A stretch of 24,000 nucleotides of DNA from Candidatus Izemoplasmatales bacterium (GTDB lineage Bacteria; Bacillota_I; Bacilli_A; Izemoplasmatales; Hujiaoplasmataceae), in contig JAQUZN010000001.1 in the NCBI GenBank assembly GCA_028691315.1, forward strand, positions 121,238 through 145,237, written 5' to 3'. Positions 2,544 through 22,215 of this stretch are shown here, one piece after another (positions within the stretch are counted from its first letter, which is position 1; each line of letters opens with the position of its first letter). A program made the translations under genes and the position numbers. The notes below the pieces were generated by a model, which worked only from the letters and a program-made list of their open reading frames with translations, did not search any database and was not told the DNA's origin.

Positions 2544-2575
2544 GTAAACTTCTTCCTTCCCATTTATTATTTCCG

Positions 2576-2587
2576 AACTCATATGTA
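2576..2587 (-). promoter_or_regulatory. near-consensus TACA-N6-TT element 44 nt upstream of ATG 2543
   Basis: The minus strand reads TACATATGAGTT. Its offset resembles the other AACA-N6-TA hits. It would place the transcription start downstream of the 2582 ATG, which supports 2543 as the start. Confidence 0.25.
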
Positions 2588-2702: not shown

Positions 2703-3116
2703 TTAAAGTTCGTCTTCCAACAAGAACCAAAGAGCAACCTCATAATCAAATGGGATCTCCCATCCTTTTAGGGTTTCAGCATCTACACAGAAAAGAGTGA
2801 CTTCGTGTTCGATTTCAGAAATTTCTTTCAATTCATCACGATACGCTTTTACTTGATCTCTGTCTTCTGTGTTGATCTGCCAATAATTTCTACCGTCTTC
2901 AGTCTGTTTCGCTTCTCCATATTTTTGGATCAAATCCTGTTTAGCTTCTGAATACTCTGCGTTTTCTCCTCTGAGAATACGAAGATTACGTCCAAGCATA
3001 TAACCAAATTTCGGGTTATATCTCTGTCCAGAATTTCCTACTGCCTGAATAATAGCAGCAATAGACTCCGCCGCATCATTAATATCCGCATTTGACATTA
3101 CAATTTTTTTATCCAT
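2703..3116 (-). CDS. hypothetical protein, 137 aa; possible fibre accessory protein by position only
   Basis: The track ORF begins at a TTG (3122). The ATG at 3116 is preceded by AAAGGAGA with a 6-nt spacer and overlaps the stop of the upstream fibre gene by 8 nt (ATGGATAA), which suggests translational coupling. Confidence 0.7.
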   Translation of the reverse strand: MDKKIVMSNADINDAAESIAAIIQAVGNSGQRYNPKFGYMLGRNLRILRGENAEYSEAKQDLIQKYGEAKQTEDGRNYWQINTEDRDQVKAYRDELKEISEIEHEVTLFCVDAETLKGWEIPFDYEVALWFLLEDEL

Positions 3117-5268
3117 TCTCAATCTCCTTTAGCTTATTCTTTATACTATTTAGTTCTTTGAGTATTAATTTAATAGCCAGGAAGTTGATAGGATTCAATT
3201 CTTCATACCCAAGGGATAAGAAATGTTCAATTACTCTTTCATTTGGATTTGAAGGGTCTTTGATAATCTCTTCATAAGTTTGAATGATACTGAGATTTTC
3301 TACATTCATACCTAATGATTCAAGTTTATCTTTTATCTTATTAGCAGAGAATCCAAAGTGCGTTAATGGAACTTTACGATCATCATCTCTGTATTCATAT
3401 GCAATAGGCTCTATGGTTTCATAGAAATCATATAATGATTGATTTGATAATTGATTAATTAGAGGAACAATATTATTTTTCTTTCTCTCATCAGAAGTGA
3501 ATTGGTTAGTTCCAGAAGAATTCAATACAGGTTTATTAAATTTAGTTGGCAGATTTACTCTAAAATCTTCTTGATCGGTATCAGCAGACTGACCTATTGA
3601 TAATCCTTTCCCACTAGCTCCAAATTCAACAAAATAACCAGAGGCAGAAACAATCATTTCTCGATAAACTGCGGTTCCATCATTTACTTCTACTCTAATA
3701 GTATAAGCATGTGTTTCATCCAATCCGGTTAAGATTAAATTCTCTTGCCAATGAGCATTTACTGAAGATGGCGGAAATGGAAGCACATTTTCAGCCGGAT
3801 ATGATGTTTCATTTACTTTCTTCCATTGAATTTTAGAAGTCATAGAATCACCTTCAAAATTATCAAGCTCCATTGCAGAAGAATAAGCTTTAAACCATAA
3901 TCTTATATTTAATCCTTCATCATTTGCAACAAATCCATCCGCAGTAGTTCCAATTCCTCTAGTAACAGACATACCATCAATAACCGGAGGCATCGTGGCT
4001 TCTCTTACATTGATGACGACTTCCTTCATAACAGTGATTCCGCGACTATCAGCCAATTCAACGCGAACGACATTTGGACCTATACTATTCACAGCAATAG
4101 TAGCAGTAAAATTATGGTTATATTCTGCTTGATCGCTAGGTTGTGCAGTTGGGGTATATGTAAAAGTTTTTGTTCTGGTAGATATGCTATATTTAATAGT
4201 GGTAACTGTAGCTCCATATCGTTTACTTGCATTGACTCTTACTTGCATGAATGGTTTTGATTTTCCAAGTTCATACCCAGGAACTACTTCTATTGGGTCA
4301 GTTGCTGCTTGTCCTCTACCAGATGAATCATCAACACTAATCGATGTAAGTTTAAATCCAATATTCGGATCATCTTTTGGGACTTTTATTGTTCCTTTAT
4401 AAGTGTATCTTCCTAATAATTCCCCTTTTGTTCCATCGGCTTTACTTATGAATGTTGCAATCGCATAATAGCATGATATGACACTTGTTTTCGTTACATC
4501 ATTAAGTATACTAAGCGGTGGAGTCCAGGGGAGTGATGTTCCTAAATAATCTTGAGTTGCAAGAATACTAGTCTCTGTACCGTCATCTTTTGTATAATAT
4601 AAAGCGATATCACATTTTGTACCAGTAGACCTTGTTAAATTAAATCTTTGTTGTTGACCAATTGTGAGATTTGGTGTTTCTAATGTCATGGTGGTAGCAA
4701 CTGGTTTTGGACCAATATCAGGAACCTGCACTTCTAGTTGACAATTGATGCTGCTACAAGTATTCGTATTATTTTTACCAGTAACCGTAATAATATCGGT
4801 ATAAACACCTGTTAGATTATAATAGGTTAAATCCCATTCATGATACACTGTTCTTTGCCATTTATTGCTTGTTACAAAGTTCTGTGAGTAGTTCTTTTCC
4901 GCTTTTGATCTTGTAGATTTCAATTTAAGCGTTAAAGCGTTATTTGATGCAACCCCATCAGTTCTTCTAAAATAAACCGCACAAGTAATTCGAACTTTTC
5001 GATTTTCTTTACTCGGTGTTTTACATTTCACAACAACCATGATCTGATAACCTTTGCTTGTACCTTGATTCGATACACCATTTCCAAATGTATAACCATC
5101 TGTGTAGGCATAATAATCATTTGGTACAATCGCAGATGTATAAGGTGTTGTGCTTAATTTTACATTTGCAAGATTATTTGCTATTGTAGTTTCATTCGTT
5201 CCATTCATAATAATGGAAGGATATTTTGTATTATCAGATGTAATCCAATATAATCTTGAATTAGCCAT
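3109..5268 (-). CDS. tail fibre/spike protein with C-terminal intramolecular-chaperone (peptidase S74-type) self-cleaving domain
   Basis: AGGAGG lies 6 nt before the ATG at 5268. The last 128 aa start with the S74 hallmark T/SDERKKNNIVPL (Ser codon 3493-3495), followed by a helical region, as in endosialidase and T5 pb1-type fibre chaperone domains. Confidence 0.8.
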   Translation of the reverse strand: MANSRLYWITSDNTKYPSIIMNGTNETTIANNLANVKLSTTPYTSAIVPNDYYAYTDGYTFGNGVSNQGTSKGYQIMVVVKCKTPSKENRKVRITCAVYFRRTDGVASNNALTLKLKSTRSKAEKNYSQNFVTSNKWQRTVYHEWDLTYYNLTGVYTDIITVTGKNNTNTCSSINCQLEVQVPDIGPKPVATTMTLETPNLTIGQQQRFNLTRSTGTKCDIALYYTKDDGTETSILATQDYLGTSLPWTPPLSILNDVTKTSVISCYYAIATFISKADGTKGELLGRYTYKGTIKVPKDDPNIGFKLTSISVDDSSGRGQAATDPIEVVPGYELGKSKPFMQVRVNASKRYGATVTTIKYSISTRTKTFTYTPTAQPSDQAEYNHNFTATIAVNSIGPNVVRVELADSRGITVMKEVVINVREATMPPVIDGMSVTRGIGTTADGFVANDEGLNIRLWFKAYSSAMELDNFEGDSMTSKIQWKKVNETSYPAENVLPFPPSSVNAHWQENLILTGLDETHAYTIRVEVNDGTAVYREMIVSASGYFVEFGASGKGLSIGQSADTDQEDFRVNLPTKFNKPVLNSSGTNQFTSDERKKNNIVPLINQLSNQSLYDFYETIEPIAYEYRDDDRKVPLTHFGFSANKIKDKLESLGMNVENLSIIQTYEEIIKDPSNPNERVIEHFLSLGYEELNPINFLAIKLILKELNSIKNKLKEIENG

Positions 5269-5278
5269 TTCTTACCTC

Positions 5279-8143
5279 CTAAACTTGTCCAGTTTTCTTA
5301 ATGGACAGATTTCCATTTTCTCTTGCAAAGAACTTAAAGTTTCCGAGAGTAACAGCGTTTGTTTGCACTTCTTCTACTTCTAATCGATTCTGTTTAAATG
5401 TCGCTAAAGTTCCAGTTTCATTACTAAAACTAATGTTTGCATCTTCTGTATCATCTCCACTAAAGATTCTTAGTTTAACTGGACTAGCATTATTTCCCAA
5501 TAAGATAGCACCGTTATAAAGATTAATATATTGGAATAAATCACTGATCTCAATATCCATTGGATTACCTTCGCTATCTAATCCTTTAATAATAGTACGA
5601 TTTCTCCATTCTGTGCTAAGACCATCAATAGAAGCTTGCACTGATACAATCTTCTCATCAACTTCTGACATAATTTTTGATAAAGAATCATTCTCTGCAA
5701 TCATGCCTTTCACATCTTCTTCTGTAAGAATCTTTGGTTGTTCTGTTTGGAACACAGCAGCCATTGCATCCTCAAAAATTTCAAATCGCATAGAAGTTGC
5801 TTCGATATAATCCCTCATAGAGTTATCATTTTCAAATTCATTAACCGTAAGATCTTCAGGTGCTGGTTGCCAATCTCGAATTTTAACCAAACTATTATAA
5901 AGACCCATATTAATCAGATTGAAAGTATCACCTTCTTGGAAATCTGTTGATTTAAATCCAATATACTTATATTCAATATTATCAAGTTGATCATAGACAA
6001 TATCATACATTCTTGTTGTCAGAGCAATATTCATGGATGCTATTCTTTTAACATGAGATAGATCTTCTGTCATTAAATATACATTAACAACCAAGGGATC
6101 ATTAGTGCTAGTCGAACCAAATGCTCTAAAACAGAATGAATATCGTCCCATAGCTGGAACTTCACTTAATGGAAGTCTAATGTATTGATTTTCTTCTGTT
6201 TGCTCTTCTTGCAACTCACCCTTTTTAAATTGTAGATAAGTGACTCTTTTAGCAACATCATCTACAGTCATTGCTTCTAAATTTTCTGGTAAGATTGTCA
6301 TCGTCCATGGAATCTCACCAAGTTCCCATAACATTGGTTTATTTACTTGATAATCACCACTGGTAAGAATCATGTTTCGAATACCGAAGGTATGATTAAA
6401 ATTGATGACATCGACATCATTAACACGAAGAGTCTCAGCATTGATTTCTACACGATCGGTATTGGCTTCTACTTTAAAGTTTCTTGAGTCAATTCCACCA
6501 CTAGGACTTAATACCAAATTATTAGATAGATTAATACCACTTTTTCCAATATAAACACTTGTATATCCATCATTTGGATCTTCCCAATAGATTTCATTCT
6601 CTCCGATATTCCAAGGACCAATTCTACCACCTTCAGTAGCAATCAAATAACCTTCGGTTGTTATTTGTACTGCACCATTGATCGATGTCATACCATTCAA
6701 TTTAATATTATCGCCAGTAAGAACAATATCTCTAGATATCAAACTTGCAAAGTTTTCTGTTAGCTCAAAGGACGTCTCATCAGTACCTGAGACTAACCAA
6801 GAAAATCTCTCAGCTGTTTGTGCAGCACTGCTGGAGATCTGTAGGGCATTGTTAGCTTCTTGACTAATAGCCGTTAAAGTACGCACGGTTTCATCCGCAG
6901 ACTCTCTATATTCATTATAAAAGTCAGAAATATATTTCTTTTCACCATCTATTGTTTCATAGTAAGTCGATCTTCGTAACTGCTCTAAACCATGCATAGT
7001 TTCATAACTAGTCTTAACAGCTTCTACGGCTATAATTTGATCTCCACTCACTTCATCTTCTAAATTTGTAATCGCTTGCCAACCCAAAGGGGAACCAGTC
7101 CATTTAGAATAAATATCTGTGGATGGCATATACCAAATATCCCCTATTCGTGGATCATTTGGTACTGTTTCTGATACAATCACATTTTTCCTATTTTGAA
7201 GAGTAATAGAATTACGATAAGTCGCAAGGTTATATCTCATTTCACAAGTGATCGTAGTAGATAAAGCAATACTAGATATAGGTAATGATAATGTATATCC
7301 ACTTGCATTTTGAACCCAGATACCATTCACATACCATCTAAAGGTTGCATCCTCATCCGTCAATTTATTTGAACCTTCATACGCAATAGCTTCTAGTGTA
7401 ATGGTAGATACAGTACGATTATCAAAGATAGTTCCTTCTGGAGAGAATATATTGAATGAGATTGACGTGTTAGTAGGTTCAAATATCATATTACTTAATG
7501 TAATGCTACCAGTAGCACTAATCGCAGCCCCTTCAGTATCCGTTCCATTATAAGCACAATAAAAAGTAGCATTTACAGTATCATTCATTTCATTAGCAGA
7601 TACCGTAACATTTTTGCCAGTATAATGCTTACCATTCCAAAATGTATCATAATCAGCATTCTTTGATTTTCTAGTCCATACCAAATCAGTAGCTTTTGCT
7701 GTAGAGGTAATGTCTTCACCTGTTTTTAATATTCTTGCCGTTAAGGTTTTAACATCACTTGGAGAAGCAAAAATAAAACCCTCTCCACTCATTACTTCAC
7801 AAGTATAATGAGCGTTTGCCGCTAACTTATCAAGCTCTGTTCTTATTTTCCTACTACTCCAAGAGGCTGTATCTTTAATAGTATTATCATCAATATCCGA
7901 AAATTTAGGAAATATAATATTTAATTTTTTCGATTTACTATCTTCATCTATTTCAATACTAGCATCCGGTGTAGCAGAGTCTCCTACTATCAGATCCCCT
8001 ATTTCTAATGACATGCTATTCTTCTCTATGCCATCTTCCATATGGTCTAATCGTTTCTTTGTAATTACAGAATCATCTTGTAATCTAGAAGGTAATGTTT
8101 TATCATAAGTCTTCCAGTTTTGTTTTGTATAATCATAAGACAT
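5279..8143 (-). CDS. large tail fibre / receptor-binding-like structural protein (954 aa)
   Basis: The N-terminus YTKQNWKTYDKTLPSRLQDDSVITKKRLDHMEDGIEKN has the TW...(I/V)T...LNxhExGI pattern typical of Firmicute phage fibre N-termini. It carries the TASWSSRKI block shared with the 1-841 ORF. Its TAG stop overlaps the SD of the next fibre gene. Confidence 0.7.
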   Translation of the reverse strand: MSYDYTKQNWKTYDKTLPSRLQDDSVITKKRLDHMEDGIEKNSMSLEIGDLIVGDSATPDASIEIDEDSKSKKLNIIFPKFSDIDDNTIKDTASWSSRKIRTELDKLAANAHYTCEVMSGEGFIFASPSDVKTLTARILKTGEDITSTAKATDLVWTRKSKNADYDTFWNGKHYTGKNVTVSANEMNDTVNATFYCAYNGTDTEGAAISATGSITLSNMIFEPTNTSISFNIFSPEGTIFDNRTVSTITLEAIAYEGSNKLTDEDATFRWYVNGIWVQNASGYTLSLPISSIALSTTITCEMRYNLATYRNSITLQNRKNVIVSETVPNDPRIGDIWYMPSTDIYSKWTGSPLGWQAITNLEDEVSGDQIIAVEAVKTSYETMHGLEQLRRSTYYETIDGEKKYISDFYNEYRESADETVRTLTAISQEANNALQISSSAAQTAERFSWLVSGTDETSFELTENFASLISRDIVLTGDNIKLNGMTSINGAVQITTEGYLIATEGGRIGPWNIGENEIYWEDPNDGYTSVYIGKSGINLSNNLVLSPSGGIDSRNFKVEANTDRVEINAETLRVNDVDVINFNHTFGIRNMILTSGDYQVNKPMLWELGEIPWTMTILPENLEAMTVDDVAKRVTYLQFKKGELQEEQTEENQYIRLPLSEVPAMGRYSFCFRAFGSTSTNDPLVVNVYLMTEDLSHVKRIASMNIALTTRMYDIVYDQLDNIEYKYIGFKSTDFQEGDTFNLINMGLYNSLVKIRDWQPAPEDLTVNEFENDNSMRDYIEATSMRFEIFEDAMAAVFQTEQPKILTEEDVKGMIAENDSLSKIMSEVDEKIVSVQASIDGLSTEWRNRTIIKGLDSEGNPMDIEISDLFQYINLYNGAILLGNNASPVKLRIFSGDDTEDANISFSNETGTLATFKQNRLEVEEVQTNAVTLGNFKFFARENGNLSIKKTGQV

Positions 8144-8283: not shown

Positions 8284-9168
8284 ATGAAAAAAGTGAATAT
8301 TATCACACCATCAAATGAAAAACTGCCATCAAATTTTGTGACTGCATGTAATCAATTACAGGAGGAATACAAATCTACTGAAGTAAAATTTAAAGCTTAT
8401 GTTTTGAAGAATCAAGATGTAGATGCTACTCAGACATTAAAAGATATTGCTAATGCAGATGTCATGATAATTGTTTCATCTATGTATTTTGGTGTAAGTA
8501 TTAATATGATATGCTCTATGATAAAAGATGTAAACCCATCTTTACATATCATCGTATGTGAATTATCAGAGAATGGAATGCCAAAGAATTTTACCGACAA
8601 GTTAATGGAAGTCCCAGTTGATTGTATACTTAGTAATCCAAAAGATATCAATATTATCAAGTATATTATCAACTATGGAATCAAAAAGAATAATGAGTCG
8701 ACCGATCAATTGTTGATACCATCAGAAAGACAAATTAACAAAGAATCATCCGTTAAAGAAACGGAAATAAAAACCGTAACAGAGATGACGGATGATGAGA
8801 TCAAGAAATTAATTTCTCAGATATTTAGAGAAATTGGTTGTAGTGTAAATCTTATTGGATTTGCCTATGCTGTTGATTCCATATTTTATCTTGTGAGGTA
8901 TGGGCATGACAATAAAATTGTAACTACAGTGTATGGGTATGCAGCAAAAGAAGCAACAAACAAAGGTAGGGAAACAACAGCCAATAGAGTAGAACGAGCA
9001 ATTCGTCATATGATTGAGAATCTTTTTAATAATGGGAAATCAAACTTCGTGTTATCGAATAAGTTCAACCCAGACAAAGGAAAACCAACCAATACGGAAT
9101 TCTTGAAGTATATTGCTGATAGTATTATCAATGGCTGGTATCAAGAAATATTAGATGAAAATAAATAA
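8284..9168 (+). CDS. Spo0A-like transcription factor: Spo0A C-terminal DNA-binding domain fused to a degenerate (pseudo)receiver domain
   Basis: The C-terminal ~115 aa align block-for-block with remembered B. subtilis Spo0A-C: ISQIFREIGCSVNLIGFAY vs ITSIIHEIGVPAHIKGYLY; ANRVERAIRHMIENLF vs ASRVERAIRHAIEVAW; KGKPTNTEFLKYIADSI vs KAKPTNSEFIAMVADKL. The N-terminal ~130 aa have a receiver-like beta/alpha periodicity but lack the acidic pocket and the phospho-acceptor Asp. Confidence 0.85.
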   Translation: MKKVNIITPSNEKLPSNFVTACNQLQEEYKSTEVKFKAYVLKNQDVDATQTLKDIANADVMIIVSSMYFGVSINMICSMIKDVNPSLHIIVCELSENGMPKNFTDKLMEVPVDCILSNPKDINIIKYIINYGIKKNNESTDQLLIPSERQINKESSVKETEIKTVTEMTDDEIKKLISQIFREIGCSVNLIGFAYAVDSIFYLVRYGHDNKIVTTVYGYAAKEATNKGRETTANRVERAIRHMIENLFNNGKSNFVLSNKFNPDKGKPTNTEFLKYIADSIINGWYQEILDENK

Positions 9169-9211: not shown

Positions 9212-9805
9212 TTAAGAAATTCTTTTTCTTTTTTGTTCCAATCGTCGATCAATTGCTTTTTGAAACTCCGGTTTCAAATAATGATAGACATCTTTTACAT
9301 TATAAAATCTACCATATTTCGACATATGATTATCCTTCAAGTTTTTATTGATATATCCATCAAACTCAGACGAATAATCTGCAACGTATAATATATTATG
9401 TACTCCATCCCAATAAATCGACGAATCATAAGCCACGAAAGGTTTGTTAAATAATCGAATATAATCAATACCCGAGAATTTTACATTTTTAATATTGATT
9501 CTTGCTTCTTGTCTAGCTTCTAATACAACTTGTTGATGATTTGCTACATCACGTTCTACAGATCCACCTGGAACTCTGAAATAATTCTTTTCTCTACATA
9601 GAAAGACTTGACCTTTATGATTAAAGATCAAAACTTCTACACGGTTTCTAAATATTTTACCTGGAAACTTAGATATGGTTACCAAGCTATTCCAATTATT
9701 ATTACGATCAAAATATCCTTTATGTAACAATGCAGAGTGCATCGTTATCTTAGGACTAGCCGGTGTTCGCATCGCTCTTTTCTCCTTCTTTCTTTTTTCA
9801 CTCAT
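9212..9805 (-). CDS. Nudix-fold hydrolase-like protein with partly degenerate Nudix box
   Basis: GGSVERDVANHQQVVLEARQEARI aligns to the Nudix box GGxxExGExxxxAAxRExxEExGU. E5, E17 and E21 are kept, but R16 is L, E20 is Q and G23 is R. Start is uncertain: AAGGAGA abuts the ATG at 9814, and the ATG at 9805 has about 10 nt spacing. Confidence 0.5.
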   Translation of the reverse strand: MSEKRKKEKRAMRTPASPKITMHSALLHKGYFDRNNNWNSLVTISKFPGKIFRNRVEVLIFNHKGQVFLCREKNYFRVPGGSVERDVANHQQVVLEARQEARINIKNVKFSGIDYIRLFNKPFVAYDSSIYWDGVHNILYVADYSSEFDGYINKNLKDNHMSKYGRFYNVKDVYHYLKPEFQKAIDRRLEQKRKRIS

Positions 9806-9839
9806 ACAAATCATTCTCCTTATAACGTAAGAATTCTAT

Positions 9840-9851
9840 TATATGGATGTT
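9840..9851 (-). promoter_or_regulatory. AACA-N6-TA element (AACATCCATATA) upstream of the Nudix-like gene
   Basis: The reverse complement of 9840-9851 is AACATCCATATA. It starts 37 nt (ATG 9814) or 46 nt (ATG 9805) upstream and lies just after the terminator of the preceding gene. Confidence 0.4.
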
Positions 9852-9880
9852 TTAGCCTTCGTTATTTACCATATTATGAG

Positions 9881-9924
9881 AAAAAAGAAAAAGGTCAGCC
9901 TAGGCAGTTTCATCCACCTAGGCT
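9881..9924 (-). terminator. rho-independent terminator after the 9935-11374 gene
   Basis: 8-bp stem AGCCTAGG (9897-9904) / CCTAGGCT (9917-9924). On the minus strand it is followed by GACCTTTTTCTTTTTT. Confidence 0.6.
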
Positions 9925-9934
9925 TGTTTTTGTT

Positions 9935-11374
9935 TTATATAATCGTCGGTATGATCCGCTTAAGTGTTTCTAATCGTTCTACCATCAATGTGTTCATCCT
10001 ATTTGCGCTGATAGGATATGCAGGTAATATCGTACCTGGGCGATATGGTGAATCAATTAGAGACTGTATGGTTTGATCAACTTCTTCGATTATATAATTG
10101 TTTACATTATTTCTTGGTTTTATTAATTGGTATTCATACATAATATCTCTTTGAATCTTCTCTAACTCTTTTGTGAAGGGTGTAACCGATTCAAATCTAA
10201 CATCATCCTTAAATGATGATTGTTCATGCTTATGATCAATTAAATTAATATAAAACTCATGGATTGAACAAGAAGATTCAATTAACTGATAATAGTTTTC
10301 AATTTGATCTTCTGATTCTATGAATAAATACGTATATAATAAATCATATGTCTCACAAACAATAGTACGCTGTAATCGTATAGTGGTACCATCTTTAGCA
10401 AATGCAAAGATATCATTCAATCCATCTTTATGAACAATAATCACATCTTCTTTTGGATTATTTGTGAATGTATTTTTCTTCATACAACCACTAATATAGA
10501 TATTATTGCCAGTGCCAACCATAGCTCCATTAGCAGTATTTTCAATGATATTTTTTGGCTCATGGATCTTTTCTTTCCATGAGTATTCATAAGTCTGATC
10601 TTTTTTCACAAAGATATCAATCGTTCCTATGAAACGGGTCTTACCGGCTTTCATATCAGTATATACATAATAAATTCCAGATATAAGACGACCTTTTGAC
10701 AATAATGCAGAAGGTAAATCCGGATAATATTGTTCTTCATCCCAACAAGTGTTTTCTGGTTCTTTATAATCTCTCTCTAAATGATAAGAAGAAAAATGTT
10801 CATAAGAATCTTTTTCTCCTTCTACGGATTCTATTTGATATTCAACCTCTTCTTTTACTAATAAATAAGCAGTATGATAATTATCTGGGCTTAATTTACC
10901 ACCCATTGGTTTAATTACTTTATTAACCATTGGACAATATTTTTCTGGCTTTTCTTCTCCAAAACAGAAACATATACTTTCCTTTGGATCATTTTTAAAC
11001 TTCTCTATTTCTTTTTTTGGTATAATTAGTTTTCTACCAATTTCTTTTTCTACCATACTTCTAGCTTGATTAAATATCTTCATTCGTTTATTAGTATCTT
11101 CTAATATAATACATACTTCATTCATAGCTTCTGGAAGATATTTTAATATACGATTATTCGGATCTATTTGTATATTACCCATTTGAAACTCTTCTAATTT
11201 ATGGATGATATTATTTGCTAATTTTTCTTCATTATTTTCATTCACATAATTAAAAAACTTAATAGCTGATTCTACTTCATTTTTATCACGTAATGGATAT
11301 TTTCTAAGTTCCGGAAGCCCATAATAGGATTCCTCCGTTACTTCTTTTTGTTTATTCTCATAGAATATAGGCAT
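9935..11374 (-). CDS. hypothetical protein (479 aa)
   Basis: Long ORF. AAAGGGGT lies 7 nt before the ATG at 11374. No family recognised. Confidence 0.75.
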   Translation of the reverse strand: MPIFYENKQKEVTEESYYGLPELRKYPLRDKNEVESAIKFFNYVNENNEEKLANNIIHKLEEFQMGNIQIDPNNRILKYLPEAMNEVCIILEDTNKRMKIFNQARSMVEKEIGRKLIIPKKEIEKFKNDPKESICFCFGEEKPEKYCPMVNKVIKPMGGKLSPDNYHTAYLLVKEEVEYQIESVEGEKDSYEHFSSYHLERDYKEPENTCWDEEQYYPDLPSALLSKGRLISGIYYVYTDMKAGKTRFIGTIDIFVKKDQTYEYSWKEKIHEPKNIIENTANGAMVGTGNNIYISGCMKKNTFTNNPKEDVIIVHKDGLNDIFAFAKDGTTIRLQRTIVCETYDLLYTYLFIESEDQIENYYQLIESSCSIHEFYINLIDHKHEQSSFKDDVRFESVTPFTKELEKIQRDIMYEYQLIKPRNNVNNYIIEEVDQTIQSLIDSPYRPGTILPAYPISANRMNTLMVERLETLKRIIPTII

Positions 11375-11390
11375 CTCAATACCCCTTTCT

Positions 11391-11436
11391 TAATACAAAA
11401 ATAAAAACATAGGAGATATATTACTCCTATGTTTTT
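11391..11436 (-). terminator. rho-independent terminator after prfH
   Basis: 13-bp stem AAAAACATAGGAG (11403-11415) / CTCCTATGTTTTT (11424-11436). On the minus strand it is followed by ATTTTTGTATT. Confidence 0.7.
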
Positions 11437-11451
11437 ACCCTCTTTTGACGT

Positions 11452-12042
11452 TCATTTCTTAACCAATTTAAATTCTGGTCCTTCATATACTCTTACAGGA
11501 TTTCCTCGAATTAAATCTTGGTGTGCTCTCCAAGCTTCTTCTTTTTGTTGAGATTGTGCATCATTCTCAATCTCTTTCAAGATAGATTTTAATCGTTCTG
11601 TTACTTCTTTTTTGTTTAAGTATTGACTTCTCTCTGAAGTGGAGACTAAGCTAATTCCAGTAGGTCTATGAATTAAACGAACTCCACTTTCTACTTTGTT
11701 TACATGCTGACCGCCTTTACCTCCACTTCGAAAAGATTCATACTTAATATCGTTCTCATTAAATTCACAAACAGCATTATGGCTAGAGATTCTACTCACA
11801 TCAATGAACCAATTCTTTCGTTTATGGTGAGGACGGATGGGACTTTTACAAATCCATTGAATAGAACCTTCTAGCCATGACAAATCATGTTTTGTTTGAA
11901 ACATAACAGAATCTTGTTTTAAAGCAGCCATATCCGATAGAACTTCAATATCTTCAAATTCATCTTCTAACGAATGAAGCAGAAGTGTAACTGCTAATTT
12001 ACATTCTGTTGGTCCATGACCTGAACTAATCTGTAGTATCAT
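11452..12042 (-). CDS. prfH: peptide chain release factor H (PrfH-type GGQ protein lacking codon-recognition domains)
   Basis: MILQISSGHGPTEC, IQWICKSPIRPHHKRKNWF and RSGGKGGQHVNKVESGVRL closely parallel E. coli PrfH as I remember it (MILLQLSSAQGPEEC, IQWICPSPYRPHHGRKNWF, GGQHVNK). GGQ codons are at 11707-11715. At 196 aa it is far shorter than RF1/RF2. It overlaps rtcB by 4 nt. Confidence 0.9.
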   Translation of the reverse strand: MILQISSGHGPTECKLAVTLLLHSLEDEFEDIEVLSDMAALKQDSVMFQTKHDLSWLEGSIQWICKSPIRPHHKRKNWFIDVSRISSHNAVCEFNENDIKYESFRSGGKGGQHVNKVESGVRLIHRPTGISLVSTSERSQYLNKKEVTERLKSILKEIENDAQSQQKEEAWRAHQDLIRGNPVRVYEGPEFKLVKK

Positions 12043-13184
12043 TCTTTTCCTCCGGCTTTAAAATTATAGATTGGTTTGATTATCTTTGCAATACGAACGG
12101 TATCTTGAATTGCTTCTTGAATATCTTTCAAATCACGATAAGCGAATGGAGCTTCATCTAATGTATCTTTACCAATACTTGGTGAATGAATACCTTTCAT
12201 GATAGATTTATATTCAGATACTGTATGAGAATTCTTTACTTCTTCTCTTTTTATAATTCTTCCTGAGCCATGAGGAGCCGAACAATTCCAATCTTCATTT
12301 CCTAATCCCACACCCAAAATAATACCATCTTTAGAATTAACTGGAATTGCTATATATTGTCCTTCTCTTGCTGAGATTGCACCTTTTCTTAAAATATAAT
12401 CATTCCCGATGAAGTTATGAGGACAATCCATATGCTTACCAGCATTCCATTTCATCTTTTTTACTATTTTACCAATAATTCTTAATCGATTAAAATGTGC
12501 AAATTCCTCTGCTATAAAAGAATCATTTAGATAATCATTTCTTAACCATCCTTCTAAATAAGTCATTTCATAAGGCACGTCAATTCCTTTTCTTTTTAAT
12601 TCTTTCTGTCCTTCGTTTAAATAATAAGATGTGATATCAGAACCAAAACTACGACTTCCACTATGAACAGATAGGAAGAGCTTTCCATCATCGTCTTGAT
12701 CGATTTCAATGAAATGATTTCCTCCACCAAGAGTTCCAACACTTCGTTCTATGATATCTTTTCTGGCGTTTTTCATTCGAATATTATTAAATTCAATTTT
12801 ATCAAAAAAGGTCATAGGCGAATCTTCAATAGAATTATGAATCTTCATACCACATGGAATATTTTCTCGAATAACTGTATCGAGTTTCTGAAATTCAATT
12901 CTCTTTGTATTAATTGGAACTATCGTAACCCCACAACCAATATCATTTCCTAAAAGATTAGGAAGAATGCGATCTGTGAGTGTCATGGATAAACCAATAG
13001 GTCCAACCTTTCCAGGGTGCACATCTGGCATGACTCTTATTTTACTATCTTTTGATACTTCATTATCACAGATCATTTTGATCTGGGCTTCAGCATATTG
13101 TTCAATTTTCTGGTCTTGCTCTTTTGTTGTAAATACCTTTGCTGATCCATATTTTCCTTTAATATAATAATTATAATTTCCCAT
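12039..13184 (-). CDS. rtcB: RtcB-family 3'-phosphate/5'-hydroxyl RNA ligase
   Basis: RtcB signature blocks are present: VMPDVHPGK, GNDIGCGV, GTLGGGNHFIEID, SVHSGSRSFG, CPHNF and NCSAPHGSGR. AAGGAGA lies 5 nt before the ATG at 13184. Confidence 0.92.
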   Translation of the reverse strand: MGNYNYYIKGKYGSAKVFTTKEQDQKIEQYAEAQIKMICDNEVSKDSKIRVMPDVHPGKVGPIGLSMTLTDRILPNLLGNDIGCGVTIVPINTKRIEFQKLDTVIRENIPCGMKIHNSIEDSPMTFFDKIEFNNIRMKNARKDIIERSVGTLGGGNHFIEIDQDDDGKLFLSVHSGSRSFGSDITSYYLNEGQKELKRKGIDVPYEMTYLEGWLRNDYLNDSFIAEEFAHFNRLRIIGKIVKKMKWNAGKHMDCPHNFIGNDYILRKGAISAREGQYIAIPVNSKDGIILGVGLGNEDWNCSAPHGSGRIIKREEVKNSHTVSEYKSIMKGIHSPSIGKDTLDEAPFAYRDLKDIQEAIQDTVRIAKIIKPIYNFKAGGKE

Positions 13185-13204
13185 ATATTTTCTCCTTATA
13201 TTTG

Positions 13205-13747
13205 TTATTTCTTTCCTTTTGGTCTAGCATCCAATTTTTTATAATTTGGCATAGGAAAATCGATCGGTAATGGTTCACCATGATCAAACTCAATATGTGG
13301 TGATTTCATAGTATACATCATTGTTTCTTGAAGAGACATATTACATATCTCTTTATTGAAATAATAAATGAGATATTGATAATTAGTACCCTTGAATACA
13401 TGACCACCATCTTCTTGTAAAACTTTTGTTTTACATTGAGATTTTAAAAAACTTGCTAATTCATCTCTTTGATTAGTTGCTATCATTTTACTAGAACTTG
13501 ATTTGTTAAAATGATTGATATAATCTACCTCGACTAATGAAATTCTTATCGCTTTTGAATCCGAAGAGGTGGAAAGGCCTTCATTAAATTTAAAATAACG
13601 ATTAGTCTTTTTATAAACTTGCGTACCCGATCGATTTATGCTTAGATTGAACGTGACGCCTTGTCTATTAATTAAATTTACAACTTCATTCAAATACTCT
13701 TTATTATTAACTGGATTAAAAATGTGTAAATTATCAAATACTGCCAT
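13205..13747 (-). CDS. hypothetical protein, single copy of the PxP(N/D)Y-terminated ~150-aa paralogous domain
   Basis: It starts MAVFDN, with the same 18-nt 5' end (ATGGCAGTATTTGATAAT) as the 15618 gene. It contains AIRISLVEVDY...NQRDELASFL and the C-terminal FPMPNYKKL. SD is GAGAGGGGA. No terminator separates it from rtcB. Confidence 0.75.
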   Translation of the reverse strand: MAVFDNLHIFNPVNNKEYLNEVVNLINRQGVTFNLSINRSGTQVYKKTNRYFKFNEGLSTSSDSKAIRISLVEVDYINHFNKSSSSKMIATNQRDELASFLKSQCKTKVLQEDGGHVFKGTNYQYLIYYFNKEICNMSLQETMMYTMKSPHIEFDHGEPLPIDFPMPNYKKLDARPKGKK

Positions 13748-13768
13748 TTTTTAGTCCCCTCTCTCTTT

Positions 13769-15115
13769 CTATTCTGGCAATTTCATATAATTTGGTATTG
13801 GTGAATTTTTGTCTAACTTTTCAATATTCAATCTACCTTTCGCTATTAATGTATTGATCATATTGATCATATAACGCCAACAATAAAAATCAGAATTAGC
13901 TCCCAATAACCTCATCAATTCTTTTTTCTGATCATTGTTTAACCTAATTTGCTCTCTTCTATCATCATTACAATCTACATATATCGGTTTATTGATATTG
14001 ATTCTAGCGTGTAATTTTTTATTCTTGCTATAATCAATATCGGTAAAAATGAAATATAAATCATCTTTTTTAATATTCCGATTTAAACATAGATGAAGAT
14101 GGTTTCCTGTCAATTCCCCCCCAAGAAAAGTGAATAGATTATGGTAGTGTTCTCCTAACTCTCGTGATAACCCAAATAAATTAAACATCTCATAATCGGC
14201 CACATAGTATTCTTCCGGACCATCTGGAAGTAACTCGTAATTTGGTTGTTTTGGTATCTTAACCCCAGGTTTTTCCATATCATCGCCTAGTAAACCAGTC
14301 TCATATAAATAATGTCTATATAACCATTCATAATTTGTCATGCCATTGAAGTGGATTAAAGAGCTTAAAAAATTATTCAATTCAACCTTTTCGTCTTTAG
14401 TTAGATATAAAAACTCTTTAGTCTCATCTGGAGTGTGAACATAATAAGGATTCATAAAACTTATTCTTGCAAGTTTAGTTTTAAATTCAAATCTTTCATC
14501 TCTTATATTAAAATATCTCTCTTTGATTGCATGGTTCCATTGTATCTTTATTGATATATGGTAATTTAAAAAATCAGAAATCATATCGTCTGACCAATTA
14601 TAATTCTCAGTCAATTGTCTTGAATCATCATATTCAAAAACATGATCGATATCATGTTCGTATAAATAAAAACCACGAGAACCAATATTGATATCCTTAT
14701 AATCTGGTGGTCTTGTTACTTTATACGGTTTATAACCCATGTCAATAAGACCTTTATTAAAATAATCAAAAATCAAATTCCAGAAAATATCATTATTTAC
14801 CAATTCAATCCATTTTGCTAACTGCTTCTTATTTAATTTAAAATTTCGAGTTCTGAACATATGATTCCAAGGAACTTCATTCATATAACTTGGATAGTTT
14901 AAATGAATTCTAGAACTTCTAGTTGCATGTTTAGGATCCTCGTTATTATACGCTATAATATAAATCAAATCCTGCCTGTTCTTTGGTGGATTGATACACA
15001 GTGACATATGAAGATGTTTATATGAGTATACAATCTTTTCTTCAGTTTTAATTTCTCCTAATATCAATTCTTTTCTTCTCATAAATCTTTTACATTTATT
15101 CATCATTCCTCCCAC
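13769..15115 (-). CDS. hypothetical protein made of three tandem copies of the same ~150-aa domain
   Basis: Modules end at RPPDYKDI (aa 136-143), KQPNYELL (289-296) and PIPNYMKL (439-446). Each has an (A/S)R(I)x(L/F)xxPxY...L(T/N)xx(Q/E)Kx(E)L core. The maximal ORF starts at GTG 15115, but GGGAGGA sits just before ATG 15106/15103, so the true start is probably one of those. Confidence 0.75.
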   Translation of the reverse strand: MGGMMNKCKRFMRRKELILGEIKTEEKIVYSYKHLHMSLCINPPKNRQDLIYIIAYNNEDPKHATRSSRIHLNYPSYMNEVPWNHMFRTRNFKLNKKQLAKWIELVNNDIFWNLIFDYFNKGLIDMGYKPYKVTRPPDYKDINIGSRGFYLYEHDIDHVFEYDDSRQLTENYNWSDDMISDFLNYHISIKIQWNHAIKERYFNIRDERFEFKTKLARISFMNPYYVHTPDETKEFLYLTKDEKVELNNFLSSLIHFNGMTNYEWLYRHYLYETGLLGDDMEKPGVKIPKQPNYELLPDGPEEYYVADYEMFNLFGLSRELGEHYHNLFTFLGGELTGNHLHLCLNRNIKKDDLYFIFTDIDYSKNKKLHARININKPIYVDCNDDRREQIRLNNDQKKELMRLLGANSDFYCWRYMINMINTLIAKGRLNIEKLDKNSPIPNYMKLPE

Positions 15116-15618
15116 TACAGTAATGCATAATCTGGCATCCGGTTTTTCATCTTTCTTAATTTCTTTTTATTTTTTTCATTATCCGTAAACTTGATATGCT
15201 CTTTTATAATATACATCCATAGTGATGCAAATCGATCTCCATATTTCGGGCAATAACCCTTCAATGTTTTTACCAACCATTCTTTCTGTTCAACGGTCAA
15301 TTCTAAATGGGAGAATATATCATCACTAGGTCTTTTCTTATATCTCGGTTTTGACATTTTTACCCTACAGCATTTTGTGCCCTCTAACATTTTACAACTA
15401 TTTATAATTTTAATATAAAAATCGTCATCGTAAGTTTGTTCAAAATGAACTAATATAGATAAATCCATTTCTTCATCTCTTACAACAAATTCCATTAAAT
15501 TGTGAGTCTCACCCAATATAACAGAGCAACTCATAGCATTTTCAATATTTTTTATAGAATCTTCTTCAATAAAAATATCTTTCTCTAAATCTTTCTTTCC
15601 ATTATCAAATACTGCCAT
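15115..15618 (-). CDS. hypothetical protein, single copy of the same paralogous domain; first gene of the operon
   Basis: It starts MAVFDN, contains CCRVKMSKPRY...LTVEQKEWLVKTL and ends RMPDYALL. SD is GAAAGAGAGG. Its stop overlaps the downstream maximal ORF by 1 nt. Confidence 0.75.
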   Translation of the reverse strand: MAVFDNGKKDLEKDIFIEEDSIKNIENAMSCSVILGETHNLMEFVVRDEEMDLSILVHFEQTYDDDFYIKIINSCKMLEGTKCCRVKMSKPRYKKRPSDDIFSHLELTVEQKEWLVKTLKGYCPKYGDRFASLWMYIIKEHIKFTDNEKNKKKLRKMKNRMPDYALL

Positions 15619-15714: not shown

Positions 15715-16899
15715 TTATAATATATATTTAGCAAAATATTCTATATCACTTTCATTAATATAAATATTACTAATATTATCGTTCTCTTCTATTTTAATTC
15801 CTAAAATTCCTGATTTACCCACTTCTAATTCAGCAGGTATTTCTATACTTCCTACATAAATAGAAGAATGAATAATTTGATTAATGAAAGCAATAAAATG
15901 ACGCAATTCATCAATATCAGTTTCTTTCGTGATCTTATAGATTGCAAATTTCCATTCATTATCATCTGTATGAATATCTATCATTCTACAGAATAACATT
16001 CTATTTTGTTGTCTTAACAATAACAATTTCTTTCTTGCCATTTCAGCAGTCTCTTTATAATCAAGTATATTATTCACTTCATTGATTCTTGTAATATGAA
16101 TGGTTCTTACCGTTTGGTGGGGAGCTTCCATTAGATTCTCTTTCAACTCCAACATCAATTGAATCATTTGGTCAAATCGATTATCCGTTAAACGGATATA
16201 ATTATATTGTTTTTGGTCTTTAATTGCTTTCTCTTTTGCTAATTGTTTTTTTCGATATTCTTCCATGTTTCTTGTATTCGGATTATCTCCACCATCTTTA
16301 ATATCAAATACCAGATTATATGGTTCATAATAATAATCAGTAATCCATTGATGTGTCTTACCATTAAATTGATAATCAATCACTGGTCCAGGCGCAGTTA
16401 AATCCGATGATTTTATATGAAAGAAATTATCCATAAAAGATAAAAATGCTTTTTCATAGCTTCCTACATAAGAAAGAACTCCACCATCTTGAAACTTATA
16501 TTTCCCCGATATGGATCGATTCTGTAACATCTTATTTTGAAACTCAGGATCGTTTAAAAAATCCTCTTTTGTTTTGCCATGTTTCTTATATAATCGATCT
16601 GCCGTTTGTTTGATATATGCTTCTTTACAAGTCTTTCTATTACAGATTCTATCGTACCGAGCTTTTGATTCATCCCATGGAGTTTCTCTTCTACATATCA
16701 CACAACTACCATTTGTTTTTTTATTAATTAAATTAAATATCACTCTTGTAGAAGAATAACCTTCAGGAATCATATCTTCATGAGTACGATCTACATGCGT
16801 AATTAGTTTATTTCTTTCTAATCTTTTCTCACAATAAGGACACTTATATTTCTTTGTATATTTCGGTTGGATTTTTATAATCTCGTTACCATTCGTCAT
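15715..16899 (-). CDS. zinc-finger protein with putative PD-(D/E)xK nuclease core
   Basis: It has an N-terminal CPYC...H(x4)H motif and a second Cys cluster (CVIC...C...C). The central SYEKAFLSFMD...YQFNGKTHQWITDYYYEPYNLVFDIKDGG fits the SxxE..FL..D / D...(D/E)xK layout of restriction-endonuclease-fold enzymes. The C-terminal ~130 aa are unassigned. Confidence 0.45.
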   Translation of the reverse strand: MTNGNEIIKIQPKYTKKYKCPYCEKRLERNKLITHVDRTHEDMIPEGYSSTRVIFNLINKKTNGSCVICRRETPWDESKARYDRICNRKTCKEAYIKQTADRLYKKHGKTKEDFLNDPEFQNKMLQNRSISGKYKFQDGGVLSYVGSYEKAFLSFMDNFFHIKSSDLTAPGPVIDYQFNGKTHQWITDYYYEPYNLVFDIKDGGDNPNTRNMEEYRKKQLAKEKAIKDQKQYNYIRLTDNRFDQMIQLMLELKENLMEAPHQTVRTIHITRINEVNNILDYKETAEMARKKLLLLRQQNRMLFCRMIDIHTDDNEWKFAIYKITKETDIDELRHFIAFINQIIHSSIYVGSIEIPAELEVGKSGILGIKIEENDNISNIYINESDIEYFAKYIL

Positions 16900-17279: not shown

Positions 17280-17663
17280 ATGCCAGTTCAAAAAGAACAT
17301 GTATTTTCATTAAATGAATTTAGAGAATCAAAAGTATTAGAAGGAAAAGAAGCCATTGCAACATTATTGGTTCGTATTATCCTTCTACAACCAGGAACCA
17401 ATCCTGATCATCCAGAAATGGGTGTGGGGTTGGTTGAGAATTATCGATATTCGCAAAAAGATAATATTGATAATCTTAAAAGAGAAATACAGAGTCAAAT
17501 TCAAACATATTTACCTAGATTACAAGCCACGAATGTTAATGTATTACTAAATCCAGATAATACATTAACGATCGGTATTCAGATCGATGATGTGATCTAT
17601 CAATTTGAAACATCAGAACTTACAGATAACGATATAAGGTTTAATGATATAAGTGAACAATAA
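17280..17663 (+). CDS. baseplate wedge protein, gp25/GPW-like
   Basis: AAAGGAGA SD. EAIATLLVRIILLQPGTNPDHPEMGVGLVENYRY...NLKREIQSQIQTYLPRLQATNVNVLLNPDNTLTIGIQIDDV aligns along its length with T4 gp25 (SIKNSLLGIITTRKGSRPFDPEFGCDL...VERNIESAVRNYEPRIDKLAVNVIP...YTLIVEIRFSV). Confidence 0.65.
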   Translation: MPVQKEHVFSLNEFRESKVLEGKEAIATLLVRIILLQPGTNPDHPEMGVGLVENYRYSQKDNIDNLKREIQSQIQTYLPRLQATNVNVLLNPDNTLTIGIQIDDVIYQFETSELTDNDIRFNDISEQ

Positions 17664-20502: not shown

Positions 20503-21839
20503 TTGGAATCATTGAATTTAAGAAATCTTATGTTAGAATATATTGATGATAATTACAATAGTGATGTTATCATGCTAAACGAAGCCGGTAAAGGAACAAG
20601 TCTATTAGAAGTTGAATTATTGGATGATGAAGACTTTATTAAGAAGAACCAAATAGAACCAATCACAAATCCAATCTTCTTTGTAAGAGAAGGAATTCCT
20701 TCTACCGATGGTTTATTATCAAATCAAATTTTTGGTATCACAAAAGAAGAACGATCTAACACATTTGGTTATATCGATCTTGGTGATACTTACATGCATC
20801 CTCTTTGTTATAAAGTATGGAGTCGAATGGATTCTCGTATTAAAGATATTGCTCATGGAACAAAAAAGTTTATCATCGAGAATGGTGATTTTGTTGAGAG
20901 TGAGAATGGTGAGAATGGTATGGAGTTCTTACGAAAGAATATCAATAACATTAAAATCCGTTCTACCGAATCTCGACAACGTGATAAAAAGATTAAATTC
21001 TTAATGAGTAATCGAAATAAAATGTTTATTAAAAAATTTATGGTTATCCCAGCATACTATCGAGATGTGGAAACTAATTCTGGTGGTAAAGTTGGGGTAG
21101 GTTCTTTAAATAAGCATTATGCATCTTTGATAATCTCTGCTCGATCATTAAAAGAAACTCAAGAGTATGGTCTCAACGTATCTGAAGCTGTGCGTGGGAG
21201 AGTGCAAGAAACAATTCTCGACATATATAACATACTTAGCGGAACTTCGGACGACCCCGATGCCGGAATCGGCTTATCTTCAAAAAGAGGGTACGTAAAG
21301 AGTGCTGTTATGGGGAAAACAGCAGATTATGGATCTCGACTGATTATTTCTGCACCTGAGTTAAAAGTAGAGGCTTTAGATGATCTAATGGTAGATATGG
21401 ATTATTGTGCATTGCCATTAGCATCAGCTATTACAAACTTCTTTCCCTTTATCGTATTCCATGTTAAACGTTTCTTTGAGAATAACTTTCATGGAAATGA
21501 ACAATATTCTACGATCAATAAAAAAACAGGTAAAACAGAATTCGTAACGATTAAAGACCCATTAGAAACTTTCTCTGATGAGAGAATACGAAAAGAGATG
21601 AAACGATTTGTTAAAGGTTACTCTGATCGTTTTTCTCCTATAGAGATTCCAACAACTAATGGCGATATGGTAAGAGCAAGATTTACCGGAAAAGAAGTAT
21701 CCGCTGAAGATATGAAGAATGGAAATGTATCCGGTTCTTCTGCTTTAATACAAAGAGATTTAACTTGGTGTGATGTATTCTATATGGCGGCCACAGAAGC
21801 TGTCAGAGATAAGCATGTTATTATTACCCGTTTTCCGAT
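20503..21839 (+). CDS. multisubunit RNA polymerase beta-prime-like subunit (N-terminal fragment type), exon 1
   Basis: TTG start preceded by GAAAGGGGTGA. Beta-prime blocks are present: STDGLLSNQIFG (cf. ERDGLFCARIFGP), FGYIDLGDTYMHP (cf. MGHIELAAPVAHIW), VIPAYYRDV (cf. VLPVLPPDLRP), MGKTADYGSRLIISAPEL (cf. LGKRVDYSGRSVI) and VIITRFP (cf. VLLNRAPTLH). The exon ends at T21839, the predicted 5' splice site. The track's tail KEEIQVSARPVMV is intron read-through. Confidence 0.85.
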
Positions 21840-22215
21840 AAAAGAAGAAATTCAAGTGTCGGCTAGGCCAGTAATGGTCTAGAAATAACTTTTCTAATTG
21901 CTGGAAATCCTTAAAGCCTCAGAGACCACAACGTAATTCATAAGAATAAGCGTGAGGGTTATCGAAAGATAGAAAAAACGTCTGAGGATGATCTATGGTG
22001 ATAGTAAGCCTAAGGATCGTATAAAATAGGTGATCAGCAGCTAAGCATCTTTATAAAAAGATGAAAGTTCAACGACTATCCGAAAGGAGTAGGGTTCAAG
22101 TGAATTCGAAATGGAAAGCATCCTTATGGGATGAAGATATAGTCTAGTATCCTAATGAAAGTTAGGGAAGTTCATAAGAGAACTGCGTAGCTTAACGACC
22201 TACGTGAATACCACG
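21840..22215 (+). ncRNA. group I self-splicing intron (ORF-less, 376 nt) in the RNAP beta-prime gene
   Basis: The classical core elements appear in order: P AATTGCTGGAAA (21896-21907), Q ATCAGCAGC (22033-22041), R GTTCAACGACTATCC (22067-22081) and S AAGATATAGTC (22134-22144). GCTG/CAGC forms P4 and GACTAT/ATAGTC forms P7. In P1, exon CCGAU (21835-21839) pairs with GUCGG (21858-21862), giving a U:G wobble at the splice site. There is a 7-bp P2 hairpin (21863-21882) and GAAA tetraloop hairpins (TATCGAAAGATA, CCGAAAGG). The intron ends in G22215 (omega-G). Confidence 0.9.

Follow-up and report, generated by a model that had tools for sequence, protein, structure and literature searches.

A phage-borne rtcB–prfH gene pair as a candidate ribosome rescue-and-repair module in an AR9/PBS1-like jumbo phage

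Results

The rtcB and prfH genes form a compact unit

We analysed a 24,000-nucleotide stretch of DNA (the window hereafter; contig JAQUZN010000001.1 of assembly GCA_028691315.1, positions 121,238 to 145,237) in which two adjacent minus-strand genes encode an RNA ligase of the RtcB family and a short release factor-like protein with a GGQ loop, PrfH. In E. coli, a pair of this kind acts on damaged ribosomes, PrfH releasing the peptide and RtcB then resealing the 16S rRNA (PMC9304027, PMC9223846, PMC13166195). A preliminary reading of the window, made from the letters alone (the sequence-only reading), had proposed that the pair is a ribosome rescue-and-repair module carried by a phage.

Both open reading frames (ORFs) and their ATGA overlap were found where that reading had placed them (Table 1), and all the motifs it had quoted, namely MPDVHPGK, GGGNHFIE, HSGSR, APHGSGR, IQWICKSPIRPHHKRKNWF and GGQHVNK, are present in the translations of RtcB and PrfH. 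Each gene is preceded by a Shine-Dalgarno-like sequence, and beyond the prfH stop codon lies an inverted repeat that reads on the minus strand AAAAACATAGGAG-TAATATAT-CTCCTATGTTTTT followed by ATTTTTG. As judged from its sequence, this hairpin is a probable terminator closing the rtcB–prfH transcription unit. The overlap, the two Shine-Dalgarno-like sequences and the hairpin together suggest that rtcB–prfH is a single unit, translationally coupled and with a terminator of its own. A scan for sigma-70 promoters returned fewer matches than in shuffled sequence; phages of the AR9/PBS1-like type transcribe with their own RNA polymerases.

Table 1 Features of the rtcB–prfH locus and of its surroundings in the window
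Feature	Position	Strand	Remarks
rtcB	12039..13184	minus	381 aa; RNA 3'-phosphate/5'-OH ligase, short PrfH-linked gut-anaerobe clade
prfH	11452..12042	minus	196 aa; peptide chain release factor H, short E. coli PrfH type
ATGA overlap (rtcB stop TGA / prfH start ATG)	12039..12042	minus	junction reads GGAAAAGAATGATACTACAGA
Shine-Dalgarno-like AAGGAG	13192..13197	minus	7 nt before rtcB ATG; read off the sequence
Shine-Dalgarno-like GGAGG for prfH	12049..12053	minus	within rtcB 3' end; read off the sequence
Inverted repeat	11402..11437		14-bp stem, T-runs on both strands, 15 nt past prfH stop; terminator scan
Three tightly packed ORFs upstream of rtcB	13205..15618	minus	180, 448 and 167 aa; possibly co-transcribed with the pair
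394-aa endonuclease-like protein	15715..16899	minus	zinc-finger-like N-terminus
NUDIX hydrolase gene	9212..9814	minus	two genes downstream of prfH
Protein with Spo0A C-terminal domain	8284..9168	plus	Pfam PF08769
gp25 baseplate wedge protein	17280..17663		myovirus baseplate gene
Tail-fibre-like proteins	3109..8143		myovirus tail genes
Split phage multisubunit RNA polymerase pieces	960..2582, 20503..21882, 22235..22621		phrog_2986, phrog_25005; phiKZ/AR9-type
Group I catalytic intron	21830..22167	plus	Rfam RF00028

The release factor is a short-type PrfH

The sequence-only reading had called the GGQ protein a PrfH rather than RF1, RF2 or ArfB, and indeed the PrfH model is the only one that it matches above the model's own cutoff. 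It scored 187.2 bits (E=2.4e-55) on NCBIfam TIGR03072 (release_prfH; curated cutoff 166.65) and E=6e-24 on Pfam RF-1, as compared with 93.4 bits on RF2 (cutoff 370), 77 on RF1 (cutoff 400) and 40 on ArfB (cutoff 100). These scores exclude an ArfB or a truncated RF2. Among solved structures it is matched best by the PrfH chains 9mor_A and 7sa4_8, and the NCBI pipeline has named the 100%-identical database entry "peptide chain release factor H". The 196-residue protein aligns end to end with residues 3-201 of E. coli PrfH but only with the C-terminal two-thirds of RF2; it lacks the release-factor N-terminal domain 1 and has its GGQ loop at positions 110-112.

The ribosome contacts described for E. 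coli PrfH by cryo-EM (PMC9304027) were mapped onto the window protein through an alignment that included E. coli PrfH and 84 homologues. Residues G10, P11, S45, R70, H72, H73, R75, K76, N77, H174 and R179 of the window protein correspond to G11, P12, S53, R83, H85, H86, R88, K89, N90, H184 and R189 of E. coli PrfH, in columns that are invariant or nearly so among the 84 homologues; positions R52 and R181 of E. coli PrfH vary from one family member to another. According to this alignment, R70, H73 and R75 (E. coli R83, H86 and R88) would form the pocket for the 3'-phosphate of A1493, and the G-x-G-P loop (G8, G10 and P11) together with R179 would sandwich the A1493 base. K76 and N77 would contact h18 and S12, H72 would stack on C1054, and S45 and H174 would contact C1914. 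By alignment, then, the window PrfH keeps every family-invariant residue that E. coli PrfH uses on the cut 16S rRNA end.

The C-terminus is also informative. The PrfH-CT type has 225-250 residues, carries a basic C-terminal helix that enters the mRNA channel and also rescues non-stop ribosomes, and the short PrfH type has been reported to act only on damaged ribosomes (PMC12829566). The window protein stops a few residues past the E. coli PrfH C-terminus and has no basic tail. Its length and the missing tail point to a damage-specific short-type PrfH, not a PrfH-CT.

The ligase has a complete catalytic core and belongs to a prfH-linked clade

The ligase matched Pfam PF01139 with 172.8 bits (cutoff 27; E=1.9e-50) and phrog_1075 with 360.6 bits. 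Residues D81, C84, N156, H157, H174, R178, H256, H305 and R309 align with E. coli RtcB D75, C78, N167, H168, H185, R189, H281, H337 and R341, which we take to be the metal- and GMP-binding residues, including the histidine nucleophile. All nine of these catalytic or metal-binding residues are kept, in columns that are invariant across 63 RtcBs.

Whether the enzyme falls in the PrfH-linked RtcB2 clade, a question raised by the sequence-only reading, received a divided answer. On the two curated RtcB2 models, TIGR03073 (cutoff 271.8) and NF007153 (cutoff 407), the window RtcB reached 109.7 and 133.7 bits, respectively. These values are no better than those of enzymes outside RtcB2, such as E. 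coli RtcB1 (143.9 and 173.2) and the RtcB of Bacillus phage Grass (111.8 and 142.4), whereas Salmonella RtcB2, to which the window protein is 25% identical, scored 642.8 and 641. It is thus not a member of the RtcB2 family characterised in E. coli and Salmonella. It does belong to a clade linked to prfH. In bootstrapped neighbour-joining trees with the RtcBs that adjoin prfH in 80 bacterial loci, it fell into a 17-sequence clade with 100% bootstrap support, and each of the 16 bacterial members of this clade adjoins prfH. They come from Lachnospiraceae, Succinivibrionaceae/Aeromonadales, Desulfovibrio, Adlercreutzia and one mobile element. The canonical RtcB2, the long Bacteroidota type and RtcB1 are on the far side of a split with 100% support.

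Linkage of rtcB to prfH was seen in most of the 80 bacterial loci, and in the bacterial loci L004-L085 the RtcBs partnered with PrfH are of several types: the canonical RtcB2, a Bacteroidota type of ~467 aa, a spirochaete type (Treponema and relatives), whose loci have the reversed order of prfH then rtcB, and the gut-anaerobe type. By sequence, at least three or four RtcB lineages serve as partners of PrfH, and the canonical RtcB2 is the only one studied so far, possibly along with the Bacteroidota type.

Several of these data weigh against the reading of the pair as a ribosome-repair module. The window RtcB lies outside the only RtcB2 family with a measured specificity for the 30S subunit, and the deep nodes of the neighbour-joining trees are weak. 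In the first tree the nearest outgroup of the clade (85%) consisted of Herelleviridae phage RtcBs that have no PrfH partner and are annotated as tRNA ligases, a sister node that lost its support once the viral pairs described below joined the tree. The 16S specificity of the window RtcB would accordingly follow from gene linkage and not from orthology to a tested enzyme.

The place of the ligase outside that RtcB2 family and its Herelleviridae sister group in the first tree favour an alternative in which the pair serves tRNA or general RNA repair: RtcB would mend tRNAs or other RNAs cut by host anticodon nucleases, a role presumed for other phage RtcBs, PrfH would only clear peptidyl-tRNA from the ribosomes that such cuts had jammed, and 16S rRNA would not be a substrate. 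RtcB without PrfH is indeed common in phages (667 records among cultured phages), and a 218-kb viral contig (L001, below) holds a PrfH without an adjacent RtcB in a setting that resembles tRNA repair. However, the residues of the A1493 3'-phosphate pocket are invariant here and family-wide, the PrfH-CT tail that serves non-stop ribosomes is absent, all bacterial members of the RtcB clade are linked to prfH, and E. coli PrfH is inactive on intact ribosomes (PMC9304027). We consider this alternative unlikely.

The pair resides in an AR9/PBS1-like jumbo phage

The phage setting that the sequence-only reading had assumed is borne out by the gp25 baseplate wedge protein, the tail-fibre-like proteins and the split RNA polymerase (RNAP) of the phiKZ/AR9 type (Table 1). 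Among cultured phages, tblastn placed the RNAP beta' piece closest, with identities of 28-33%, to those of Listeria phage LPJP1, of Staphylococcus phage S6 and phages related to it, and of the Bacillus phages AR9 and PBS1. The apparent split of the beta' gene between 20503..21882 and 22235..22621 is due to an intervening group I intron, which matches the full length of the Rfam model (88.2 bits; gathering score 50). The source contig is 246,077 bp long and was deposited as part of a Candidatus Izemoplasmatales metagenome-assembled genome (MAG), in which the database entries for both proteins are 100% identical to those studied here. With a split RNAP, myovirus baseplate and tail genes and a genome of ~250 kb, the window is confirmed to belong to an AR9/PBS1-like jumbo phage. 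The length of the contig fits this group, and its bacterial label most likely arose as an artefact of binning. Near-identical DNA was sought in cultured phages, where the only match was a chance-sized one of 37-40 nt inside rtcB.

The GC content is ~0.32 across the whole window. At third codon positions (GC3) it is 0.19-0.20 in the rtcB–prfH pair, 0.20-0.275 in the other genes of the window and 0.35-0.62 in the bacterial homologues. The agreement of the pair with the phage genes implies that the pair has long been resident in the phage, and speaks against both a chimeric join and a fresh capture.

The pair recurs in other viral contigs

The sequence-only reading had called for a survey of phage genomes for rtcB–prfH adjacency, and such a survey showed that the pair is not unique to the window but occurs in other uncultivated jumbo phages. 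Our scan of IMG/VR was seeded with two peptide seeds, and its counts are therefore undercounts. Adjacent rtcB and prfH were found in about ten other low-GC contigs of 67 to 292 kb, in at least four gene layouts (L097, L098/L099, L100, L101/L103, L106/L114, L096/L117 and L120, together with short fragments), and most of the recurrent viral PrfHs pass or touch the TIGR03072 cutoff. Three of the contigs, L096, L117 and L097, have the neighbourhood of the window, with RNAP beta', gp25, a 725-aa protein and the endonuclease-like protein. In three contigs sampled for their flanks, L098, L103 and L114, the surroundings of the pair are phage-like: terminase and a virion protein flank the pair in L098 and L114, a phiKZ-type RNAP subunit is also present in L098, and a phiKZ-type RNAP subunit and topoisomerase II stand by the pair in L103. 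The ORF layout of L098 and L114 is found again in L100 and L106. The sampled neighbours of the pair in L120 are a UvsX-like recombinase and a transposase, and the viral status of this contig comes from the IMG/VR classification alone.

This recurrence bears on the possibility that the pair is passenger DNA or an artefact, either a bacterial operon captured by chance without a function in the phage or part of a bacterial or chimeric contig. The source record was indeed deposited as a bacterial MAG, and the nearest homologues of both genes are bacterial, from Lachnospiraceae at 55-60% identity. Against this, the entire 24-kb window is phage-like, the pair has the GC3 of the phage genes and not that of the bacterial homologues, the catalytic and recognition residues are all intact, and the pair is present in other viral contigs, with related phages holding it in the same neighbourhood. 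Such an explanation seems to us highly improbable.

Further viral contigs encode other release factors. L001, L109, L111 and L116 contain PrfH without an RtcB within 8 kb. The one in L001 is a strong PrfH (243 bits on TIGR03072); its neighbours in the region 9342..15171 encode a P-loop kinase, an NT5C nucleotidase, a metallophosphatase and a CCA-adding enzyme, and the whole may represent a different repair partnership. Full-length RF1/RF2-like factors of 360-375 aa, distinct from the short PrfH, are encoded in L121, L124, L125 and L163 (170-433 kb). Among cultured phages (INPHARED) there was no convincing PrfH; the matches were unverified short contigs, host-like RF2 fragments and RF-like genes of Lak phages.

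The prfH gene of L103 (8001..8588 in a 292-kb contig, and the same in L101) stands out by its composition, with a GC of 0.49 and a GC3 of 0.55 in phage DNA of 27% GC; the adjoining rtcB is AT-rich (GC3 0.12). The GC-rich stretch runs from ~20 nt past the ATG to ~60 nt before the stop codon, and the region is identical over 1201 nt in the two assemblies. Judged by composition, the core of this gene looks like a recent replacement by a bacterial allele.

Relatives of the two proteins

Both window proteins are 52-59% identical to members of Lachnospiraceae operons. The closest PrfH (64% identity, 96% bootstrap) comes from a bacterial genome (L002 5095..17656, GCA_964621905.1), where it is encoded downstream of an RtcB on an element equipped with an integrase, YqaJ, a Rad52-like gene, DUF932, a transposase and a PIN-domain gene. 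Its location on an integrase-bearing element suggests that temperate or integrative elements are vehicles of the pair as well. The PrfH and RtcB trees agree coarsely, each with a half that holds gut/Firmicute and phage sequences and another that holds the canonical RtcB2, Bacteroidota and spirochaete types, and their fine branching is poorly supported.

Neighbouring genes

Upstream "paralog" genes, mentioned by the sequence-only reading alongside the pair, were considered as part of the module and rejected. The mutual similarity of the three upstream ORFs is weak (E 0.01-0.03), the 448-aa protein is an ORFan whose sole homologue found was itself, and in the related viral contigs none of the three adjoins the rtcB–prfH pair. 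The 180-aa protein has nine remote homologues, with which it makes up a tiny family marked by the motifs YFK...RIS...Y(I/V)xH and a C-terminal LPIDLPMPDYxKL. Tails of this P-x-Y-x-x-L type are also repeated within the 448-aa ORFan. An AlphaFold model of the 180-aa protein (pLDDT, the model's confidence score, 67.9) gave no fold match in PDB or BFVD.

Among the other genes, the NUDIX hydrolase gene lies on the same strand as prfH, past the terminator-like hairpin. The 394-aa protein matches a PHROG "endonuclease" family with 153.8 bits, and in L096, L117 and L097 much longer ORFs near the pair include its homologues. The Spo0A C-terminal DNA-binding domain (61.9 bits) in a phage protein points, from sequence, to an endospore-forming Firmicute as the host and to possible interference of the phage with sporulation control; such a domain is at odds with the Izemoplasmatales label. 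No tRNA genes were found in the 24-kb window.

Discussion

The identity of both genes and their residence in a phage are confirmed. The best reading of the pair, and one that we regard as fairly probable on the sequence evidence, is ribosome rescue and repair. In this model, a ribosomal RNA-cleaving nuclease (rRNase) of the colicin-E3 or CdiA-CT type would cut 16S rRNA between A1493 and G1494, and the cut ribosomes would stall with an empty A site. The short-type PrfH would enter the A site and bind the 3'-phosphate-ended A1493 through the R70/H73/R75 pocket and the G8-G10-P11 loop, whereupon its GGQ loop would free the nascent peptide. The ribosomal subunits would then part, and the co-translated RtcB would mend the break in the freed 30S subunit by joining the 5'-OH to the 2',3'-cyclic-phosphate or 3'-phosphate end. 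The phage would gain a host translation apparatus that stays usable through a long jumbo-phage infection. Our data show the family membership of the two proteins, their conserved recognition and catalytic residues, the operon coupling, the phage residence and the recurrence in other jumbo phages; the enzymatic specificity of the RtcB clade, the identity of the nuclease and the role in infection are inferred.

The most likely threat would be a host suicide or defence nuclease, and counter-defence against a host rRNase is plausible. Our literature search gave no anti-phage system or infection-time nuclease that cuts at A1493, which counts against such a role and is in line with another explanation, that the same mechanism meets a different threat. 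The pair would then protect against ribosome-cutting toxins from competing bacteria (colicins, contact-dependent inhibition or secreted polymorphic toxins), from rival phages or from mobile elements. Interbacterial toxins are the only demonstrated triggers of the pathway, matching its bacterial role (PMC9304027, PMC9223846, PMC13166195), and the closest PrfH lies on an integrase-bearing element, where the host would profit from it. However, a lytic phage would gain little from guarding a cell that it will soon kill, unless the infection is long, and several lineages of jumbo phages have the pair next to core phage genes, which suggests that it acts in the infection itself. Protection against competitors seems quite unlikely to us as the reason why the phage carries the pair.

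It is also conceivable that jumbo phages carry PrfH and RtcB as a dedicated counter-defence whose alleles have been swapped repeatedly with those of their hosts. The GC-rich prfH core within an AT-rich phage gene in L101/L103 fits such swapping. We put this broader proposal forward tentatively and hold it to be rather doubtful.

The phage RNA repair known so far mends tRNA. To our knowledge, no pathway other than PrfH-RtcB reverses a cut in the ribosomal decoding centre, and until now it has been seen only as a means by which bacteria protect themselves from colicins and contact-dependent toxins. With intact, composition-adapted pairs in several lineages of jumbo phages, ribosome repair would no longer be confined to bacteria but would include viruses. 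Such pairs lead to the prediction that decoding-centre cleavage is used against phages, or matters to phages during infection, and hint that some bacteria may fight phages by cutting their own rRNA. If the counter-defence reading is true, PrfH-positive phages would offer a direct handle for finding that defence. The lineages found here also imply that PrfH partners with several unrelated RtcB lineages, one of which alone has been studied biochemically.

The sequence-only reading was not aware of the pair having been characterised for a phage, and likewise neither a phage-borne PrfH nor a phage-borne PrfH-RtcB pair is described in the literature that we searched, a scope that does not include Burroughs & Aravind 2016 (NAR). 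Phage or virus is not mentioned in the PrfH papers of Baranov 2006, Burroughs & Aravind 2019 and Tian 2026, and the word phage occurs once in Tian 2022. RtcB, ATP-grasp ligases and PTH2 appear in a comparative review of 224 jumbo phages, from which PrfH is absent. What is new here is the viral carrier and the different ligase lineage; both proteins are recognisable members of a known system.

That system is the RtcB2-PrfH operon of the E. coli ATCC25922/CFT073 type (Tian et al. 2022, PMC9304027; Maviza et al. 2022, PMC9223846, and 2026, PMC13166195). The window pair has in common with it the order of rtcB then prfH in overlapping or abutting frames, a GGQ-bearing PrfH of ~200 aa with the same family-invariant residues for the A1493 end, and a complete RtcB catalytic core. 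It differs in being viral instead of chromosomal and in its RtcB lineage, at ~25% identity to Salmonella RtcB2 and below the cutoffs of both RtcB2 models. The nearest relatives are the rtcB–prfH operons of Lachnospiraceae and other gut anaerobes, with the same gene order and the same 100%-bootstrap RtcB clade. These operons, annotated by the NCBI pipeline (PGAP) as "RtcB family protein" and "peptide chain release factor H", are uncharacterised and bacterial, and their GC3 lies far above that of the window pair.

Among phage systems, T4 Pnkp and Rnl1, which act on PrrC-cleaved tRNA-Lys, and the phage RtcB "tRNA splicing ligases" (phrog_1075; Herelleviridae, mycobacteriophages and others) likewise use a phage RNA ligase to undo host damage to translation. 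They target tRNA and have no release factor, whereas the window ligase is coupled to a PrfH of the type known to act on ribosomes with cut 16S rRNA only. The PrfH-CT of Capnocytophaga gingivalis (Tian et al. 2026, PMC12829566) shares the fold and the recognition of damaged ribosomes, and its structure 9mor_A is the best solved-structure match by HMMER score; it is longer than the 196-aa window PrfH and has the basic tail that the latter lacks. Huge phages also encode full-length release factors (Al-Shayeb et al. 2020, PMC7162821), which belong to the class-I release factor superfamily as PrfH does. Those RF1/RF2 homologues read stop codons and have been tied to the redirection of translation (PMC7162821), whereas PrfH is without domain 1 and does not read stop codons.

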